Assembly: GCA_035935115.1 (NCBI GenBank)
Contig: DASYXK010000021.1
Span: forward strand, 268,174 to 300,173
From: Nitrosopumilaceae archaeon
Lineage (GTDB): Archaea; Thermoproteota; Nitrososphaeria; Nitrososphaerales; Nitrosopumilaceae
Reading direction: 5' to 3'
DNA length: 32,000 nucleotides
The translations under genes and the position numbers were made by a program. The notes below the pieces were generated by a model. The model searched no databases, had not been told where the DNA came from, and saw only the letters and a program-made list of their open reading frames with translations. Below, piece after piece: positions 5,315-28,416 of this stretch (position 1 is the first letter of the stretch; every line of letters begins with the position of its first letter).

Positions 5315-6861
5315 GTCTGCTCTCTCATGAATTGAGGAAGATAGTATTCCCCTCCAGCCCCTTTACCTGAAATTCCAGACTCTTTCCAGCCAACAAAGGG
5401 TTGAGCTCCAACCATTGCACCCGTGGTTGCGCTTGCAGCCCTATTTGCATAAGTTACACCGGCTTCAATTTGTTCAAAGAAGGCTTCAATTTCTTTCTGA
5501 TCTTTGCTAAATATCCCAGCAGTAAGACCGTAATTAGTTTTATTTGCCATCTTTATCCCTTCATCAAAGCTATCAAACGGAATAACACAAACAAACGGCA
5601 AAAACAATTCTTCTACAATTAGCTCGTGTTCTTGTGGAAGGTCGGTAACTATTGTAGGCTCGACAAAATATCCGTGTTGATAATCCGAATCTTTTAGAAC
5701 AGAACCGCCAAATACAACCTTTCCATCTTTTTTTGCAACCTCAGAGACTCTTTGGAATTTTTTCACTGCGGCTTCATTAATGAGTGGTCCCAAAAAAACA
5801 TCTTTTTGCCAAGGATAACCTATCTTGATGGATTTTGTTTTTGATACTAGTTTTTCCATAAATTGATTTGCAATATTTTTTTGCACATAAACTCTAGAAC
5901 AGGCACTGCACTTTTGTCCGCCATATCCAAATGATGCACGTAAAACTCCTTCTGCTGCTTTTTCAAGATCTGCAGATTCAGTAATAATTGCGGGATTTTT
6001 TCCTCCCATTTCAGAAATAAATGGTCGTGGTTTTTTCTCAACAAAAGCTTCAAACCCCGACATTCCAACCTCTTTTGAACCTGTAAAAGCAATTCCATCA
6101 ACAAGTGGACTTTCAAATATTGTTTTACCTACAACGCTTCCAGCACCAGTAATAAAGTTCAGAGCTGCAGGAGGAAGCTTGTGATGTATAGATTCTACAA
6201 ACTTGAATGCTGAAAGTGGAGCATCACTAGATGGTTTGAGAATTGCAGAATTGCCCGTAATGAGAGCTCCCGTAGTCATTCCAATTGCGATAGCGGATGG
6301 AAAATTAAATGGCGATATTATTCCCCAAAGACCGTAGGGTTTGAGCACGCTTCGTGTCTTTTCATTTGGACTGACGCTCTTTGTTTCTTTAGAAAAGCCT
6401 TGATTCAATTCAAGTTGTTCTGCATAAAATCTAAGAAAGTCAACTGCTTCATCTACATCCCCCATAGCTTCAAGGCGATTTTTACCGTTTTCAAATGTCA
6501 TTATAGCAGCGAGTAGGAATTTATCAAAAGACAGAGTTTTGGCGCATTCTCTAAAGATTTCAACTCTTTTTTGATAAGATACTTGACTCCATCTTGAAAA
6601 AGCATCCTTTGCAGAGTCTATAGCGTGAAGCGCATCTTCTCTTGTTGCCAATGGAAAATTTGCAATAACAATTCTGGTATCAGCCGGAGATCGTACTTGA
6701 AACTGATTATCAGAGTAAATTTCTTTTCCTCCTATTATCATCGGATATCTTTTGCCAAAATCTTTTTTTACCGTATCAATTGCTTGATCAAATTTCCTGT
6801 TGAATTCATCGGTAAAGTTGTTTAATACTGCACTAGTCCAAGTTTTTTCATTTTCAAACAC
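5296..6861 (-). CDS. pruA: 1-pyrroline-5-carboxylate (L-glutamate gamma-semialdehyde) dehydrogenase, ALDH family
   Basis: 521 aa. ALDH motifs FTGS and EMGGKN, with the catalytic Cys in GYGGQKCSACSR. The N-terminal region (EAMGDVDEAVDFLRFYA) is typical of the RocA/PruA subgroup. Convergent with the proline dehydrogenase and overlaps it by 19 nt. Confidence 0.85.
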   Translation of the reverse strand: MFENEKTWTSAVLNNFTDEFNRKFDQAIDTVKKDFGKRYPMIIGGKEIYSDNQFQVRSPADTRIVIANFPLATREDALHAIDSAKDAFSRWSQVSYQKRVEIFRECAKTLSFDKFLLAAIMTFENGKNRLEAMGDVDEAVDFLRFYAEQLELNQGFSKETKSVSPNEKTRSVLKPYGLWGIISPFNFPSAIAIGMTTGALITGNSAILKPSSDAPLSAFKFVESIHHKLPPAALNFITGAGSVVGKTIFESPLVDGIAFTGSKEVGMSGFEAFVEKKPRPFISEMGGKNPAIITESADLEKAAEGVLRASFGYGGQKCSACSRVYVQKNIANQFMEKLVSKTKSIKIGYPWQKDVFLGPLINEAAVKKFQRVSEVAKKDGKVVFGGSVLKDSDYQHGYFVEPTIVTDLPQEHELIVEELFLPFVCVIPFDSFDEGIKMANKTNYGLTAGIFSKDQKEIEAFFEQIEAGVTYANRAASATTGAMVGAQPFVGWKESGISGKGAGGEYYLPQFMREQTQTRCE

Positions 6862-10634: not shown

Positions 10635-12706
10635 ACGAAATAGAGCTTGGGAATTTTCTTTCCCATTCTAATACAAAACTAGGATTTAACAAGGGTGTAA
10701 CAGTTTTTGTTGGTCAGAACGGGACAGGCAAATCAAGTATTATAGACGGAATTACATTCGCACTATTTGGACAGCATACTAGAAATTCTAACAAGGGACT
10801 GGTTCGTCGAGGTGCAAACCAGGCGTATGCCAAGGTAAATTTCTCCATTTTAGACAGACAGTTTGAGGCAATACGCAAAATTGATTCAAAAGGAACAGTT
10901 TCTGCTCAATTTTTTGAGAAAAAAGACGGCAGTCTCATACCACTTGCATCGGGGGAAAGAAAGCAGTTTGGCGAATCCATGACAAAGACAATTGAATCAA
11001 TCATAGGAATGGATTTTGATAAGCTCAAGGTAGCATCAATTGTTCAACAAGGCGAACTTAATTCCATAATTAATGCAGACCCAAAAAAATTCAAGGAATT
11101 AGTAAATGCCATTATTGGAATTGATAAACTCGATACCGCGTTTGAAGTAATGAAAGATGTTATAGAAAATTTTCGTGTTTCTATAAAAGAGAGATTAGAA
11201 TATGATGACAGAGATATTGAAAGCCTAAAAATTAAAATTGATTTTCTTACAAAAGAGATCAATCTAGCAAAGCCGCAAAGAGAAGAGATGATCACAAGGA
11301 AGAAAATACAAGAAAGCGAACTTGTTCAACTACAAAATAAGATCGAATCAGAATCTGCAAAAGAAATAAAGATAAAAGAGCTAGAAACAAGAAAGTCAGA
11401 ACTTGTTCAGTATGTAAAAACTGCAATCACTTCTCTTAAAAAAGAAATACACGAAAAAGAGAAAAAATTTTCTGATTGTGATGGATGTTTTACCCACATA
11501 TCATCCAAAAAAGAAATGGAATCACAACTAGTAAAAGTAGAAAACGAATTAGAATCGTCAAGAAGAAAAATTCAAGAATTTGTAGAAAAAATAGGCAAAC
11601 TTGGTGGCCAGGAGGAGCTTGCAGGAAAGCTGAAATTACAAGACGGAAAGTGCCCAGTCTGTGATTCCAAAGTCGAAACTCTCAATCCTCTTTTTGAGGA
11701 GGAACACATTCGTAATGAGATTACAAAAATACGAAATAACATAGATTCACTAACAAAGATAGAAAAAGAGAATCGTGAGAAAAAACATGTTTTTGAGCAA
11801 AATCTACAAAAAGCTCTCAGTGCAGAAAAAACGCTTTCCATACATGGAATAAAACAGCCACAAGAGTTAGTACACCTAAAAGAGGAAATTTCCATGTTAA
11901 AAAATAATATCAAGAAAATTCCATCGGAGTTAAATTCGTCAGAAAATATGATACATTTGGCAATAGATCCCCATTCTGAATCAATATGTAAAACAATACT
12001 TTTACTTCAAAAAGAAACAGGCGGATTTGATCTAACAGAATTTAAAAATCTAAAAATTTCTTTTGATCAAAAACGCAAGTCACTTAGTATGACAGAACAA
12101 GAAATCGGTGCAATAACACAGAAGATACAGACGGCAGAAGAGCAACAAGAAAAAATATCTCAAGCATTAGAAGAACTTGTTTTAGTAAAAAAATATGTTG
12201 CACAATTAGAAGAAATACGAAGTCAGATTTTTAATAGAGACGGACCTGTTGCAATGAGTTTACGATCATGGGCGCTAAACTTGATATCACAAAAGGCATC
12301 AGAATATTTGTCTGCATTTAACGTAAAGATCCAAAGGGTTTTGTTGCAGGAAAAAGCTCGCGATGTAGGAATTTCATGTTATTCTGGAAATACAGTTTTG
12401 GAACTTGATTCTCTAAGCGGTGGTGAAAAAGTCAGCATAGCATTAGCTCTGCGCCTTGGAATGGCACACATTCTAGGTTCCTCTAATCTTAACTTCATCA
12501 TACTTGATGAGCCAACTACACATTTAGATGAGGAACGTAGAAAATCACTTGTAGGAATTCTCTCTAATGCATTTGAAGCTAATCTAGCTGCAATATCTCA
12601 GTTTATTATAATTACACATGATTCTGAAATATTTGAAAATTCTAATGTTGACACAATATACAATTTTGAGGCAACGTCTGAAGGAACAAAAGTAACAGCG
12701 CTCTAA
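10628..12706 (+). CDS. rad50: Rad50 SMC-like ATPase
   Basis: Walker A GQNGTGKSS, a long Glu/Lys-rich coiled coil, zinc hook CPVC (11651-11662), signature LSGGE and Walker B IILDEPT. The start overlaps the mre11 stop by 7 nt. Confidence 0.9.
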   Translation: MLNEIELGNFLSHSNTKLGFNKGVTVFVGQNGTGKSSIIDGITFALFGQHTRNSNKGLVRRGANQAYAKVNFSILDRQFEAIRKIDSKGTVSAQFFEKKDGSLIPLASGERKQFGESMTKTIESIIGMDFDKLKVASIVQQGELNSIINADPKKFKELVNAIIGIDKLDTAFEVMKDVIENFRVSIKERLEYDDRDIESLKIKIDFLTKEINLAKPQREEMITRKKIQESELVQLQNKIESESAKEIKIKELETRKSELVQYVKTAITSLKKEIHEKEKKFSDCDGCFTHISSKKEMESQLVKVENELESSRRKIQEFVEKIGKLGGQEELAGKLKLQDGKCPVCDSKVETLNPLFEEEHIRNEITKIRNNIDSLTKIEKENREKKHVFEQNLQKALSAEKTLSIHGIKQPQELVHLKEEISMLKNNIKKIPSELNSSENMIHLAIDPHSESICKTILLLQKETGGFDLTEFKNLKISFDQKRKSLSMTEQEIGAITQKIQTAEEQQEKISQALEELVLVKKYVAQLEEIRSQIFNRDGPVAMSLRSWALNLISQKASEYLSAFNVKIQRVLLQEKARDVGISCYSGNTVLELDSLSGGEKVSIALALRLGMAHILGSSNLNFIILDEPTTHLDEERRKSLVGILSNAFEANLAAISQFIIITHDSEIFENSNVDTIYNFEATSEGTKVTAL

Positions 12707-15039: not shown

Positions 15040-16131
15040 ATGATAAAAAGATCAGATATTCAAAAAATTGTCAACGAATATTCTGATCTTACCATAGGTA
15101 CACTTGGCAGTCATTCTGCACTTGAAATAATGGATGGTGCAAAAGACGAAAATTTGCAAACCGTAGTAGTGTGTCAAAAAGGACGCGAGATACCATACAA
15201 AAGATTTTCCAGACTTGCAGACGAGATAATAATCCTAAACAAATTCAAGGATATGCTTTCTCCAAAAATTCAAGCTCGCCTGCGTGCTTCAAATACAGTA
15301 ATTGTACCACACAGAGCACTTACTGCTTATCTTGGATATCTGGGTGTTGAAAATAATTTCAAAGTACCAATATTTGGAAACAGAGCATTGTTTCAGGCAG
15401 AAGAACGATCACACCAAAAGAATCAATATTATCTGCTTGAAAAAGCAAAGATAAAACATCCAAAACTTTTCAAAAACCCAAAGGACATAGACAGGCCTGT
15501 TATTATTAAGGTACAGGAGAAATCTCGTAAACTTGAGAGAGCTTTCTTTAATGTTTCATCATATTCAGAATACAAAGACAAGTCAGAAATCAAGATTGGA
15601 CGTGGACTTGTTTCAAGAGACGCATTAAAAAGTGCAAGTATTGAGGAACATGTGATAGGGACATACTTTAATTTCAATTACTTTTACACTCCAATTTCAG
15701 ATGAAGTTGACTTTCTAGGCATAGAGCGAAGATTGCAGACAAACATACATGATTTTACTTCACTTCCTGCTAGGCAGCAACTTGAGACAAACATAGAATT
15801 ACAAAATATAGAAGTAGGTCACACTCCCGCAAGCATAAGAGAATCACTTTTGGAAAAAGTTTTGTCTGCAGGAGATAAATTTGTCAATGCCGTCAAAAAA
15901 GAATACTCGCCTGGAATCATTGGTCCATTTTCATTGCAAAGTGTAATCACAAGAGATTTGGAAATTGTGGTGTATGATGTATCACTACGAGTTCCTGGAA
16001 ATCCAATTCTTGCCACAACTAGTCCGTACACAAAATACAAGTACGGAACTACATTTGGAGTTGGAAGAAGGATTGCAATGGAGCTAAAACGAGCTCAGCA
16101 AGAAGGAAGATTAGATGAGATAGTTACCTAG
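15040..16131 (+). CDS. purP: 5-formaminoimidazole-4-carboxamide ribonucleotide (FAICAR) synthetase PurP
   Basis: N-terminus IGTLGSHSALEIMDGAKDENL and ATP-grasp-like architecture, 363 aa. This is an archaea-specific purine biosynthesis enzyme family. Confidence 0.9.
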   Translation: MIKRSDIQKIVNEYSDLTIGTLGSHSALEIMDGAKDENLQTVVVCQKGREIPYKRFSRLADEIIILNKFKDMLSPKIQARLRASNTVIVPHRALTAYLGYLGVENNFKVPIFGNRALFQAEERSHQKNQYYLLEKAKIKHPKLFKNPKDIDRPVIIKVQEKSRKLERAFFNVSSYSEYKDKSEIKIGRGLVSRDALKSASIEEHVIGTYFNFNYFYTPISDEVDFLGIERRLQTNIHDFTSLPARQQLETNIELQNIEVGHTPASIRESLLEKVLSAGDKFVNAVKKEYSPGIIGPFSLQSVITRDLEIVVYDVSLRVPGNPILATTSPYTKYKYGTTFGVGRRIAMELKRAQQEGRLDEIVT

Positions 16132-24080: not shown

Positions 24081-24638
24081 ATGCCTCAAACTAAGCCAAT
24101 GGTAAGTATTGAAAATGTCGTGGCTTCAGCATCTGTTGATCAAAGACTTGATCTCAATGAAATCACAAAAAAATTCCCTGATACAGAATATCACCCCGAA
24201 CAATTTCCAGGACTAGTATTTAGAATAAAATTGCCAAAGACTGCAACGCTAATCTTTAGTTCTGGAAAGATGGTTTGCACTGGAGCAAAATCTACAGAAC
24301 AGTCAATTAGTGCAGTAAGAAGCGTGGTACAAAAACTTCGAAAGGGCAAGATAAAAGTAAAAAATGATCCTGTCATAACAATTCAAAATATCGTAGCCTC
24401 TGTAAACCTTAATGGAAAAGTTCATCTAGAAAGAGCTGCAAGAAGCTTGCCGCGAAGCATGTATGAGCCAGAACAGTTTCCAGGACTAATACATAGAATG
24501 CTTGATCCGAAAACGGTTATTCTGATTTTTGCATCAGGAAAGCTTGTTTGTACGGGCGCAAAAAAGGAATCTGATGTATACCGGTCAGTAAACAATCTGC
24601 ATACGATGCTTGAAGAAAAAGAATTAATGATATACTAG
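24081..24638 (+). CDS. tbp: TATA-box binding protein
   Basis: 185 aa with two direct TBP repeats: IENVVASASV...YHPEQFPGLVFRI...LIFSSGKMVCTGAKS and IQNIVASVNL...YEPEQFPGLIHRM...LIFASGKLVCTGAKK. Confidence 0.95.
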   Translation: MPQTKPMVSIENVVASASVDQRLDLNEITKKFPDTEYHPEQFPGLVFRIKLPKTATLIFSSGKMVCTGAKSTEQSISAVRSVVQKLRKGKIKVKNDPVITIQNIVASVNLNGKVHLERAARSLPRSMYEPEQFPGLIHRMLDPKTVILIFASGKLVCTGAKKESDVYRSVNNLHTMLEEKELMIY

Positions 24639-24646
24639 TGACAAAC

Positions 24647-24652
24647 TTTTTT
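24647..24652 (+). terminator. Oligo-T tract after tbp
   Basis: A tttttt run 9 nt after the tbp stop (TAG 24636-24638). Confidence 0.35.
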
Positions 24653-24891
24653 CTTGATTTCTAAAAGTATCAAAGACACTATGTTTTGAAGATATAGACA
24701 ATGTGAAAATACTAATTTTATTCGCATTTTGGTTGTAAATAAAACGATCCGATTAATTATCGGTAAAAGCATTTCTAGTCTACGAAAAAAAATACACAAA
24801 TCACATATTGTGTTGATGTTAAAAATAAAATTGAAATCATATTGAAAAATAATGTAGTATCATTTCCAATAAAACAGATCGTGATTATGAG

Positions 24892-25968
24892 ATGACCGAC
24901 CTTTACCGCGTACTACCAGATGAGATGGACAAGCTCGTCATTGGATTGGGCCAGCCGCGTTACCGTGCAGACCAGTTGCTCCGTGCACTATATCACGATT
25001 CTCCCAAGGACATATCTGATCTGCACCAGCTCCCCACACCTATGCGAGATGCACTCATTTCAGCAGGGTACACTATTGGTTCTGCAAGCGAAGCTTATCG
25101 TGTTGCAAGTGAAGACATGCAAACAACAAAGTTGCTCCTCAAGTATAGTGACGGTACTATGATCGAGACTGTGCTTATGCAGTATCCATCAAAGACCAAA
25201 TTTCATCCTAGGTCTACTGTCTGTGTTTCTACTCAAGTTGGCTGTGCTATGGGTTGTGTATTTTGTGCCACAGGACAGATGGGTTTTAAACGGAATCTAC
25301 AAGCAGAGGAAATTGTTGCACAGGTACTCCACTTTGCTCGTGTCCTCCGCGAAAGAGAAGAACATGTCACAAATCTTGTTTTCATGGGCATGGGTGAACC
25401 GCTGGCAAATTATGCCGAGACCATCCGTGCTGTAAGACTATTGACACATGCACGAGCATTTGGGCTGGGGCAACGAAGCATAACCATTTCCACAGTAGGG
25501 GTCATCCCGTTGATAGACCGTCTTGCTGACGAGCAACTCCAGATTGGACTAGCTATTTCTCTTCATGCACCAAACGATAAGCTGCGTCGCAAATTGGTGC
25601 CAACAGCTGGGCCACATTCTGTCGAGGATTTGTTCTTGGCATCAAAACGCTACTTCAAAAAAACAGGGCGCCGCATTACTTTCGAATATGCCATTATCGA
25701 TGGCATCAATGATTCTCCCGAAGTTGCAGTTGAGCTAGCTCAGCTCTTAAAAGGCAATGGCGCTCATGTAAATTTGATTCCTGTAAATTCTACTGCAGGT
25801 GATTTTCAGCGTCCAGAGCGACGGCAGATATATGAATTCCAGCAAATTCTCCGCAAAGGTGGTGTTAACTGCACTGTGAGGGTGGAGAAGGGATCGGAGA
25901 TCTCTGCAGCTTGCGGTCAGCTGCGGACAGATATGGTAAATAAGATTACAAATTCAAACATAGATTAA
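24892..25968 (+). CDS. rlmN: RlmN/Cfr-family radical SAM adenosine methyltransferase (23S rRNA A2503 / tRNA A37 type)
   Basis: 358 aa. The radical-SAM cluster motif CAMGCVFC (C118-x3-C122-x2-C125, nt 25243-25266) is preceded by the conserved Cys111 (STVCVSTQVGC) at the same 7-residue spacing as in E. coli RlmN. Also GMGEPL, and the C-terminal catalytic Cys341 in SAACGQL. G+C content is much higher than the flanks. Confidence 0.9.
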   Translation: MTDLYRVLPDEMDKLVIGLGQPRYRADQLLRALYHDSPKDISDLHQLPTPMRDALISAGYTIGSASEAYRVASEDMQTTKLLLKYSDGTMIETVLMQYPSKTKFHPRSTVCVSTQVGCAMGCVFCATGQMGFKRNLQAEEIVAQVLHFARVLREREEHVTNLVFMGMGEPLANYAETIRAVRLLTHARAFGLGQRSITISTVGVIPLIDRLADEQLQIGLAISLHAPNDKLRRKLVPTAGPHSVEDLFLASKRYFKKTGRRITFEYAIIDGINDSPEVAVELAQLLKGNGAHVNLIPVNSTAGDFQRPERRQIYEFQQILRKGGVNCTVRVEKGSEISAACGQLRTDMVNKITNSNID

Positions 25969-26360
25969 AGACAAAAGAGAGGTGAAATCAGTTCAAGCAA
26001 GGCTATTGCTAAGATGTATGTTCAAAGTCAAATAGCCGATTTCTGTATGAGATCGGTTAGTTGCCGTTTCTTTTTCTAGTTCTTGCACCTTTTTTGCCTG
26101 CTGCTACATAAGATGCATGTGATCGTTTTTTCATACTTGAATTGGAGTGTACAGGTCATTATAGGGAGCTAGTCGCCAATAGTTGCTTTTTTAATGGAAT
26201 TTTTCAAGCTGATAGTAGATAGAACTAAAAAAGTCAAAGGCATTTATGGGTTGGTAAAATAGTTGTAGTTTTATTTTATAGTACACCCCAATGATACATA
26301 TTAGAATTATAGAAATTTCTACAATCAAATAAATATTAGAAAAAATTAAGATGTATCGGG

Positions 26361-27485
26361 TTGAATCTGAAACTATTATTTATTATCGTACCCATTTTAT
26401 TATTAGCTAGTTTTATTGTAATACATGAAAATTTTGCTTTTGGTCAAACTAATAGTTCTACTACATACAATGTTCCACAAGAACAATCTAATAGCGATGT
26501 TTTGATTATTAATTCCAATACCAAGGAAGCTGGACAAAATAGCGAGACCGTCAAATTACCCATATCTGAACTGCTCTTTGATGTGACACCTAATTATGAC
26601 AAACAAGGTAAAACAGTATCACTTTCTATCAAATTAAAGCCAGGACTTGATGACATATATCAAGCAATTAGTTTATTCAACAAACCACGCGATATCGTAT
26701 TTATTTATCCAAGCTTTACACAGGCGGCATATTCCAATAAGGGTTTTTATGATTACTATCACAAGATATGTGATACAAGTTGTTTGACTGTACCAATTCC
26801 AACAAAGGTAGTAGGATTTCAATCTTCAAGCATAGCAGGCGCGCTTGTACTAAAGCTGTTAAATTATCCTTATGTGAAAGATGAAGACGTAGACAAAAAT
26901 CCTGATATTTTAAAACAATACAAGCGAGTAATAGTTTTGCACAACGAATACGTCACAAAAAAAGAATTTGATGCCATAACAAGTCATCCAGATGTGGTAT
27001 TTCTTTATCCAAATGCTCTCTATGCCAAAGTAAGTGCAAATTATGACAGCAACACCATCACGTTAGTTAGAGGCCATGATTATCCAGCTGGTGTTAGAAA
27101 CGGATTTGATTGGAAGTATGACAATTCTAAATACGAGTATGACATAGAATGCAATAACTGGAATTTCTATTCCAAAGAGATCACACCTCAATATAACCAC
27201 GTATTTCTTAACTGCTATCCTGAATACAGGTTGCTTTACAGTCATGAGATCTTGCTGTTACTGCAAAAACCAGACCCAACAGACTTGGTAAATGATCTTG
27301 CAGACTGGTTGAGATACCCAAATCAGGTAACTTCAACTAGAGTATTAGGTAACTATGATATTTCTGGAACTTACATTCCACAGTGGATAGCAAAACCTGC
27401 CAATTGGTTGTTAAATGGTGATATAAGCGAATATGAATTTGACAATATCATCACCTATCTTTCTCAACAAAACATCATAAGATAA
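26361..27485 (+). CDS. Secreted or membrane-anchored protein of unknown function (374 aa)
   Basis: TTG start followed directly by the signal/anchor LKLLFIIVPILLLASFIVI. Asn/Tyr-rich ectodomain. The C-terminal Trp-rich motif IPQWIAKPANWLLNGDISEYEFDNIITYLSQQNII resembles, from memory, termini seen on Nitrosopumilus extracellular proteins. Confidence 0.7.
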   Translation: MNLKLLFIIVPILLLASFIVIHENFAFGQTNSSTTYNVPQEQSNSDVLIINSNTKEAGQNSETVKLPISELLFDVTPNYDKQGKTVSLSIKLKPGLDDIYQAISLFNKPRDIVFIYPSFTQAAYSNKGFYDYYHKICDTSCLTVPIPTKVVGFQSSSIAGALVLKLLNYPYVKDEDVDKNPDILKQYKRVIVLHNEYVTKKEFDAITSHPDVVFLYPNALYAKVSANYDSNTITLVRGHDYPAGVRNGFDWKYDNSKYEYDIECNNWNFYSKEITPQYNHVFLNCYPEYRLLYSHEILLLLQKPDPTDLVNDLADWLRYPNQVTSTRVLGNYDISGTYIPQWIAKPANWLLNGDISEYEFDNIITYLSQQNIIR

Positions 27486-27900
27486 GATTCAAGATCGTTT
27501 TACGTTGTAATTATTTTTCCTATCTATGTCTTGTTGTAAATTGATTGTTTTTTCTTATTTTCAATTTTGTTCTTTCTTTGTTTGCAATTATAATTTCAAA
27601 TTCTAAAATCCTTTTTGCCAGATGATTTTTGTATTCAAAAAAAATTTTGTGAACACAGTAAGCAATTTATCCTATCAAGTAAATTGTGTTGCAGACCACA
27701 GGACTCTAACGGGATGATGTGTATTATGGCAATCCTTTGACCGTTTGTGATATTGTGGTCACTAATTTTGTATAGTAAATAGAAATACGCAACTAAAATC
27801 GGCAATCATTCAGGATCTCTGATTTATTATCATACAAGATCTCGTCACAAAAGCGGTTTTCTGATGTGTAGTTGAGGTTATTCTAACCAATAAAGAGATT

Positions 27901-28416
27901 CTACTTCATTTTCACATTGATTATCAAAGTGTTCTCAGTAAAATCCAAGGTAGCTTGTCGCCCTAAATTTTCTAACATCCGTTCATGCTGTGTTTTATAG
28001 AAGAATGACCATTTTTTTCCCATATTGTGGTGAATTATGAACTTGATCATTCCTTTCTCACTGGATTCTAAATAATCAATACCAGATTTTCTCAGTCTGT
28101 TCCTTAGGATTGAAAAAAATCCATCAATAGTATTATCACCTGTCATCATTAGCCTGACATCCTTAGTGGAATCTGCAGTCTTAATTGCTATCTTGTAAAG
28201 TGTTTTTTCATCTAATTCATTCATTAATTCCTTAAGTACGTCGGCAAGAACTACAACCCATCCTGCTTTACTTGCGGTACTATCCCATTGGAGATATTCT
28301 GTAAGTATGTGGTTAACCAGCATGTTGAGGTTTAATCCCTCAATTTTTGCTTTTACCCTCAATTTATCCAAACTTGTACTTGGTAATCTAATACTGATGC
28401 TTTTGTCTAAAATCAT
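27901..28416 (-). CDS. Ribbon-helix-helix (CopG/Arc-like) N-terminal domain protein with an unknown C-terminal domain (171 aa)
   Basis: The N-terminus KSISIRLPSTSLDKLRVKAKIEGLNLNMLVNHILTEYL has the beta-strand/helix/helix pattern of RHH DNA-binding domains. The remaining 120 aa or so are unassigned. Confidence 0.55.
   Translation of the reverse strand: MILDKSISIRLPSTSLDKLRVKAKIEGLNLNMLVNHILTEYLQWDSTASKAGWVVVLADVLKELMNELDEKTLYKIAIKTADSTKDVRLMMTGDNTIDGFFSILRNRLRKSGIDYLESSEKGMIKFIIHHNMGKKWSFFYKTQHERMLENLGRQATLDFTENTLIINVKMK

Follow-up and report, generated by a model that had tools for sequence, protein, structure and literature searches.

The DNA analyzed here, referred to as the window, is a 32,000-nucleotide stretch from a Nitrosopumilaceae archaeon (assembly GCA_035935115.1, contig DASYXK010000021.1, positions 268,174–300,173), and the subject of the analysis is its rlmN gene, a forward-strand open reading frame (ORF) at 24892–25968 that encodes 358 residues plus a stop codon. 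The product is a bacterial-type radical S-adenosylmethionine (SAM) methyltransferase of the RlmN/Cfr family, and the guanine-plus-cytosine content (GC) of the gene is 0.468 overall and 0.412 at third codon positions (GC3). Immediately upstream on the same strand lies tbp, encoding the TATA-binding protein (24081–24638; Pfam TBP, E = 1.6e-60; GC3 0.274, typical of the host), and the two genes are separated by an AT-rich intergenic region (24639–24891, forward strand) that presumably contains the promoter.

Judged from profile and structure alignments, the predicted protein is clearly a complete, intact RlmN and not Cfr. We assign it to RlmN because its score against the RlmN equivalog profile hidden Markov model (HMM) TIGR00048, 368.3 bits with residues 4–351 aligned to profile positions 9–349 of 355, lies above the cutoff of 290, whereas the Cfr models TIGR04432, NF000424, and NF011024 give 264.1, 264.5, and 266.6 bits, far under their cutoffs of 550, 530, and 468. 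A preliminary description of the locus, made from the sequence alone, had held that the two enzymes could not be told apart in this way; the HMM scores contradict it on that point while agreeing with its assignment to the RlmN/Cfr family. The Pfam Radical_SAM domain is matched at E = 5.7e-17, and the N-terminal domain RlmN_N (PF21016) scores 21.5 bits, slightly below its cutoff of 24, with the alignments to TIGR00048 and to the structure 6fz6 beginning at residue 4 and spanning that domain. The best matches among solved structures are both RlmN proteins, namely PDB 6fz6 (E = 5e-91) and Escherichia coli RlmN 3rf9 (E = 4.5e-62). In the 3rf9 alignment, Cys111, Cys118, Cys122, Cys125, and Cys341 pair with C118, C125, C129, C132, and C355 of the E. 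coli enzyme. Cys111 and the radical-SAM motif C118-x3-C122-x2-C125 are encoded at 25222–25266 (+), the GMGEPL motif (residues 166–171) at 25387–25404 (+), its position checked against the structure alignment, and AACGQL (from residue 339), which contains Cys341 as the counterpart of the methyl-carrying E. coli C355, at 25906–25923 (+). The catalytic set is thus full, and each residue lies where the preliminary description had placed it. Within the window's genus the ratio of nonsynonymous to synonymous divergence (dN/dS) is ~0.1, so rlmN is under purifying selection.

Compared with bacterial RlmN (E. coli, PDB 3rf9/5hr6; 6fz6; TIGR00048), the window protein can be aligned over its full length, the N-terminal domain included, and has in common the radical-SAM core, the CX3CX2C motif, and both mechanistic cysteines; it differs in its archaeal host and in a short, variable C-terminal tail of ~10 residues. 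Cfr, the 23S ribosomal RNA (rRNA) A2503 C8-methyltransferase that causes antibiotic resistance, belongs to the same superfamily and has the fold and the catalytic cysteines in common with it (PDB 9p0p, E = 1e-57). Unlike Cfr, the window protein groups with housekeeping RlmN in trees and has no mobile-element context at its locus.

The compositional anomaly of rlmN is real and far beyond chance. By direct count, 32 of the first 61 nucleotides of the coding sequence are G or C, as are 13 of the 51 nucleotides just before it, 6 of the 30 in the last ten codons, and 23 of 60 in each of the downstream blocks 26081–26140 and 26141–26200; the preliminary description had given the counts for the first 61, the preceding 51, and the two downstream blocks exactly, and had rightly called the last codons AT-rich. 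Sliding-window GC is 0.42–0.49 within rlmN vs 0.26–0.38 in its flanks, and the GC3 of 0.412 compares with 0.237–0.360 in the other 26 ORFs of the window, among which only the one at 27901–28416 exceeds 0.29. Scored as log-likelihood under the window's own synonymous usage, rlmN averages -1.298 per codon vs -1.021 ± 0.045 in the other ORFs (z = -6.2), and CGN triplets make up 85% of its arginine codons vs 32% in the window background. Both codon usage and composition are therefore as unlike the host as would be expected of a foreign gene, and the sharp shift reported for this gene is fully borne out. The GC of the coding background is 36.3%, that of rlmN ~46.9%, and that of the same protein written in host codon preferences 40.1%, so that amino-acid composition accounts for ~4 of the 10.6 points of excess and the choice among synonymous codons for ~7. 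EF-2, also encoded in the window, has no GC3 enrichment. Scans of the window for transfer RNA (tRNA) genes and Rfam families found none, so that neither an integration site nor an RNA gene explains the GC of rlmN. Two ORFs in alternative frames within rlmN (24920–25162 and 25223–25435) were considered as overlapping genes and rejected, as chance ORFs are expected in GC-rich sequence, although no search for evidence in their favor was made.

The occurrence of a bacterial-type RlmN in Nitrosopumilales is already known, having been published in 2009 as a case of horizontal transfer (PMC2836569). In that work the Cfr/RlmN family was reported as missing from Archaea with the sole exception of Nitrosopumilus maritimus, whose copy was put down to horizontal acquisition (Kaminska et al. 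2009/2010, PMC2836569), in agreement with the bacterial origin and archaeal rarity that the preliminary description had put forward. RlmN of N. maritimus (PMC2836569) and other Nitrosopumilales falls into the same archaeal clade as the window protein and has the same length and catalytic residues, and NCBI records of metagenome-assembled genomes annotate Nitrosopumilales homologs as RlmN. The 2009 tree placed the archaeal RlmN with plants and cyanobacteria (PMC2836569), whereas the nearest relatives found here are Dehalococcoidia/Tepidiformaceae-type sequences. This donor lineage, together with the unfinished amelioration in one genus described below, is the new detail.

The best 120 protein matches are 73–100% identical to the window protein, and all those with a label come from Thaumarchaeota, namely Nitrosopumilaceae, Nitrosotalea (N. 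devaniterrae among them), and Nitrosopumilales; Nitrosarchaeum joins these relatives through a cluster look-up. Among these best 120, the labeled archaeal relatives are 73–91% identical to the window protein. A further search was seeded with P0121, an outlier with GC-rich-type composition, and returned bacterial-labeled relatives (Tepidiformaceae, Tepidiforma, Dehalococcoidia, and Chloroflexi) at 70–73.5% identity to the window protein; the amino-acid composition of these sequences is of the GC-rich type. An apparent ceiling of 52% identity for bacteria was discarded as an artifact of listing the best 120 matches and of clustering at 50% identity, in which the close bacteria fell into the archaeal cluster. 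The universal VFMGMGEP motif overwhelmed pattern-based locus scans of genome and metagenome contigs, which gave distant bacteria (39–50% identity) and, from archaea, just the loci L001 and L087, and which missed the close archaeal and Chloroflexota relatives.

A neighbor-joining tree of 244 sequences united the 122 archaeal RlmN in one clade nested in a Dehalococcoidia/Tepidiformaceae-labeled radiation. Monophyly of the archaeal sequences received a bootstrap value of 99 in the amino-acid analysis and one of 94 on Dayhoff-6 recoded data, a recoding by which most of the amino-acid exchange driven by GC is eliminated. The window protein falls in a 12-member group, hereafter the window clade, placed as sister to a Nitrosotalea-type group with a bootstrap of 83 with amino acids and just 7 after recoding; the proteins of the window clade have the most GC-type amino-acid composition within the archaeal set, but a composition of the GC-rich type is seen in not one of the 122 sampled members of the archaeal clade. 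The simple picture suggested by the tree is an origin in bacteria, with a single transfer from a GC-rich Dehalococcoidia/Tepidiformaceae-type chloroflexotan to Nitrosopumilales. Three labels or sequences in this data set stand out on their own: P0311, labeled as RlmN of Hyphomicrobiales, sits among Dehalococcoidia-type sequences, and P0087, labeled as Nitrososphaeraceae, falls within the Nitrosotalea-type clade, so that both labels look unreliable, and the C-terminus of P0160 is rich in Arg and Pro, as is typical where GC-rich DNA is read through a frameshift.

Comparison of gene order revealed that rlmN also follows tbp in at least four other assemblies, with protein identities to the window of 91% in L171, 90% in the P0004 contig, 89% in L172–L173, and 87% in L170. 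The P0004 contig, 27 kb long, additionally has PurP, CorA, SNF2, and EF-2 in common with the window. Synonymous divergence (dS) of rlmN and tbp climbs together across the tbp-linked relatives (0.46/0.24, 0.54/0.30, and 1.07/0.72). EF-2 of the window is 93–98% identical to the Nitrosopumilaceae set of the same genus and 90–91% identical to Nitrosotalea, and RlmN gives the same ordering at 82–91% and 77–80%. As to the remaining marks of a recently transferred foreign gene, the site is occupied in relatives rather than empty, and the closest homologs are archaeal rather than members of the donor group. Taken together, these comparisons suggest that rlmN has been inherited vertically after tbp in the window's genus, a sister of Nitrosotalea. 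PurP was tried as a benchmark for vertical descent and abandoned: the purP-like gene near Nitrosotalea-type rlmN is only 32–35% identical to window PurP, and the two are paralogs, which makes the comparison unusable. The two PurP-like (DUF1246/DUF1297) genes lie at 15040–16131 (+) in the window and at 11471–12496 in L081, 11346–12371 in L082, and 11419–12444 in L086.

These results bear directly on the proposal that this genome recently acquired a fragment of ~1.3 kb straight from a bacterium of medium or high GC, with insertion beside tbp. The sharp composition step at the start codon, the strongly foreign codons, and the bacterial origin of the family all speak for it. We nevertheless consider it highly improbable, given that the closest labeled relatives among the best 120 are all Nitrosopumilales while the best bacterial sequences reach 70–73.5%, that archaeal RlmN is monophyletic, that the same site is filled in relatives diverged up to a tbp dS of 0.7, and that the supposed 3′ junction coincides with a conserved native small ORF (see below). 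Orthologs at the same locus and a phylogeny nesting the gene among archaeal sequences are the two observations that the preliminary description itself had named as speaking against a recent transfer, and both were made here, with the copies at the tbp site having diverged together with tbp. What holds of its proposal is the horizontal acquisition from a GC-rich bacterium, as regards the ultimate donor and as judged from amino-acid composition; the transfer was neither recent nor specific to this genome, nor was it a direct uptake by it. That bacterial reads were chimerically joined into an archaeal contig during assembly or binning has a probability close to nil: the source contig is metagenome-assembled, but independent assemblies from JGI, Logan, and NCBI have the identical tbp–rlmN junction, and the flanks are ~90% identical up to, or nearly up to, the start codon.

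The flanks place the compositional boundary at the gene. The tbp–rlmN intergenic region is ~90% conserved with L171–L173, and the blastn alignment of tbp plus spacer reaches the rlmN start in L171 and ends ~22 nucleotides short of it in L172–L173. Within this region, 24806–24883 (+) is the degenerate remnant of a small upstream ORF; tblastn detects it (52% identity over 27 residues, E = 0.005) in a position co-linear with the start of rlmN. L167 (80 residues, 6061–6303) and L177 (65 residues, 937–1134) have this ORF intact and overlapping the start of rlmN; the two copies are 52% identical (E = 1e-20) and have a GC of 0.25–0.29 although they abut the GC-rich rlmN. Since an AT-rich native ORF overlaps the rlmN start in these two loci, the compositional boundary goes with rlmN itself, which fits a bacterial origin of rlmN alone.

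At the 3′ end, the AT-rich stretch of ten codons (25936–25965, +) encodes the C-terminal tail, which lies outside the conserved domain: its sequence differs between the window, L171, L172, L170, L167, and L084, and the PDB alignments stop at residues 347–352. Downstream, a block at 25985–26238 is matched by blastn at 86% in L172–L175 and is absent downstream of rlmN in L170. It contains a very basic 25-residue ORF on the reverse strand (26057–26134, −), MKKRSHASYVAAGKKGARTRKRNGN, whose peptide is 100% identical in L172–L175; four synonymous changes and the stop codon are the only differences, and the ORF probably represents a genuine gene for a small protein. No Pfam family matches the small ORFs flanking rlmN, including this one and the 65–80-residue ORF upstream. 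The AT-rich end and the intermediate-GC tail, previously taken for the 3′ junction of a transferred fragment, thus correspond to the variable C-terminal tail and, for the most part, to a conserved minus-strand ORF, respectively.

Orthologs of rlmN form a graded series in composition. Gene GC and GC3 are 0.505 and 0.46 in L171, 0.492 and 0.45 in L167, 0.473 and 0.44 in L177, 0.470 and 0.37 in L172, 0.468 and 0.41 in the window, 0.435 and 0.30 in L176, 0.434 and 0.33 in L084, 0.409 and 0.27 in L170, and 0.41–0.42 and 0.25–0.32 in the Nitrosotalea-type loci L081, L082, and L001, while the flanks of rlmN in all these loci have a GC of 31–41%. The opposite extreme of the series is L087, a metagenome contig whose rlmN (168–1217) has a gene GC of 0.317 and a GC3 of 0.11 and encodes a protein 66% identical to that of the window. 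The GC3 of the orthologs tracks inferred branch length. Overall codon usage of the Nitrosotalea gene is host-like (z = -0.1), with arginine still mostly encoded by CGN.

A non-stationary T92 model was fitted to third positions of codons with a conserved amino acid, such likelihood models taking over from parsimony counts of lineage-specific changes. For eight taxa of the window clade, a free root improved on the stationary model by 43 in twice the log-likelihood (2ΔlnL), with a root GC3 of 0.57–0.63 and an equilibrium of 0.20–0.27; with gamma rates the improvement was 44 for eight and 58 for twelve taxa, with a root of 0.67–0.69 and an equilibrium of 0.20, and for the four tbp-linked genomes alone it was 23. 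Summarized over the fits, the root GC3 was 0.52–0.69 and the equilibrium 0.19–0.21. In the controls equilibrium was not rejected, with a 2ΔlnL of 1.8 for tbp in the four tbp-linked genomes and 3.0 for Nitrosotalea-type rlmN. The 12-taxon fit places the GC-rich state at the common ancestor of the window clade and the Nitrosotalea-type clade, with no separate window-clade stem, and gives root-to-tip synonymous paths of ~0.3 for the window, L171, and L167, 0.5–0.9 for L177, L176, L084, and L170, and 1.0–1.7 for Nitrosotalea.

The reading that we consider likely is that of an intact bacterial-type RlmN gained in one old transfer from Chloroflexota, inherited vertically after tbp in the genus, and still undergoing amelioration. 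Its synonymous sites would be drifting from an ancestral GC3 of ~0.6–0.7 to the host level of ~0.2–0.27, so that the GC-rich, CGN-rich codons would be an undecayed leftover of the bacterial origin. The window lineage would be among the least decayed, and the Nitrosotalea copies would already have reached host composition at third positions.

Several points weigh against this reading. All trees are neighbor-joining trees, and the GC of the donor was judged from the amino-acid composition of its closest bacterial relatives. The fit needs 3–4 fold differences in path length between sister lineages, while protein root-to-tip distances differ by only ~15%, and L170 would be ~1.7–1.9 times faster than the window by amino-acid and transversion differences, not 3.5–4 times. 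Allowing two equilibrium classes post hoc improves the fit slightly (2ΔlnL ~7), and in parsimony counts the window, L171, and L167 lack the GC-to-AT excess that decay should produce, although the counts are small and their polarization ambiguous. Amelioration that is unfinished across a family-level radiation is also longer-lived than usually assumed. The T92 model accounts for differences between tips via branch length alone, and a slower clock is not distinguishable from reduced AT pressure or from mild codon selection in some lineages.

Some of these points could be explained by selection specific to the gene, which would keep host-rare GC-rich codons in some lineages, for example for throttled translation or mRNA shape, so that the anomaly would be maintained rather than decaying. 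High GC3 persists in the deeply separated L177, L167, L171, and window, whose flanks are all at 31–37% GC; parsimony singletons in the window, L171, and L167 give no sign of GC being lost on balance; the two-class model is the slightly better fit; and the excess of change in L170 is larger at synonymous sites than in amino acids or transversions. That model nevertheless sets its "high" equilibrium at 0.29, a value at the host level, and its root is still GC-rich; stationarity is strongly rejected; host-like orthologs are intact and conserved (Nitrosotalea at z = -0.1, L170 at a GC3 of 0.27); and EF-2 gives no sign that GC-ending codons are generally favored. We regard such selection as very unlikely. 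More broadly, it is distinctly unlikely that a factor other than time, be it codon or mRNA selection or repeated re-introduction in soil Nitrosopumilaceae, holds the GC-rich sites in the window, L171, L167, and L177; if it did, a bacterial gene would have stayed compositionally foreign throughout a whole genus radiation.

The contexts of rlmN raise one further alternative, namely a second-hand transfer, by which the ancestor of the window's genus would have replaced its rlmN, or gained it anew, from a GC-richer carrier of the archaeal-type gene. In the Nitrosotalea-type loci L081, L082, and L086 the site is a different one, conserved among them, in which aspS–gatCAB and then rlmN, a 71-residue ORF, and the purP-like gene follow one another, compared with the position after tbp in the window's genus; codon usage differs likewise (z = -0.1 in Nitrosotalea vs -6.2 in the window). 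Other members of the window clade carry rlmN beside a beta-propeller gene, ParB, PPDK, or TIM, which gives the clade at least five different immediate contexts. A second-hand transfer would explain the new chromosomal site along with the higher GC, and it would fit both the most GC-type protein composition among archaeal sequences and a root GC3 of ~0.6 for the clade, which is hard to square with a long stay in AT-rich genomes. Against this, the RlmN tree and EF-2 agree in placing the genus next to Nitrosotalea, the 12-taxon model puts the GC-rich state in the ancestor of both clades, and, with 0 of 122 sampled archaeal-clade sequences of GC-rich type, no candidate donor was seen among them. 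Moreover, neighbors such as the beta-propeller gene, the 374-residue gene described below, and tbp recur among the contexts, which indicates local rearrangement rather than import. On balance we hold a second-hand transfer to be conceivable but unlikely.

Beyond the small ORFs, the next gene downstream of rlmN (26361–27485, +) encodes 374 residues that include a hydrophobic segment at the N-terminus and match DMFA2_C weakly, under the Pfam cutoff, and it moves relative to rlmN: its homolog lies upstream of tbp in L171 (769–1890) and is convergent, straight after rlmN, in L176 (1287–1814). Close relatives also differ in the place and direction that a small ORF near this gene (27523–27615, −, in the window; 2–166 in L176) takes with respect to tbp and rlmN. 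The interval from tbp to EF-2 looks rearrangement-prone and variable as a whole, and the P0004 contig has a beta-propeller gene and several tiny ORFs there. The 171-residue ORF at 27901–28416 (−), with a weakly CopG-antitoxin-like N-terminus (E = 0.0019), has the second-highest GC3 of the window (0.36) and the least host-like codons among the other ORFs (-1.108), and may be non-native. In the Nitrosotalea-type loci, the ORF of 71–74 residues between rlmN and the purP-like gene (L081, 11231–11446; L082, 11104–11319; L086, 11181–11405) is conserved at 73–75% identity; it has no Pfam family, and none lies beside rlmN in the window.

If the enzyme works as other members of its family do, C118, C122, and C125 would hold a [4Fe-4S] cluster, and reductive cleavage of SAM would yield a 5′-deoxyadenosyl radical. 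Cys341 would be methylated by a second SAM and give up a hydrogen from its methyl group to that radical; the resulting methyl-derived radical would add to C2 of the target adenine, and Cys111 would resolve the covalent enzyme–RNA crosslink. In bacteria, RlmN acts on A2503 of 23S rRNA and A37 of several tRNAs, and 2-methyladenosine (m2A) was catalogued for Bacteria only in a 2020 review (PMC7694415). Our literature search for m2A in Thaumarchaeota found no paper. The conservation of rlmN under purifying selection would nonetheless predict m2A on thaumarchaeal rRNA or tRNA, which could be tested in cultured Nitrosopumilus or Nitrosotalea.

The locus is also a caution for the reading of composition, in that a sharp step in GC and codon usage at a gene boundary did not here mean recent transfer: rlmN is common to the whole archaeal family and has stood at the tbp site through a genus-level radiation. 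The donor of this gene would be narrowed to Dehalococcoidia/Tepidiformaceae-type Chloroflexota, at ~70–73% identity, and the series of orthologs, running from a GC3 of 0.46 down to 0.11, could serve to calibrate rates of amelioration in slow-growing archaea.

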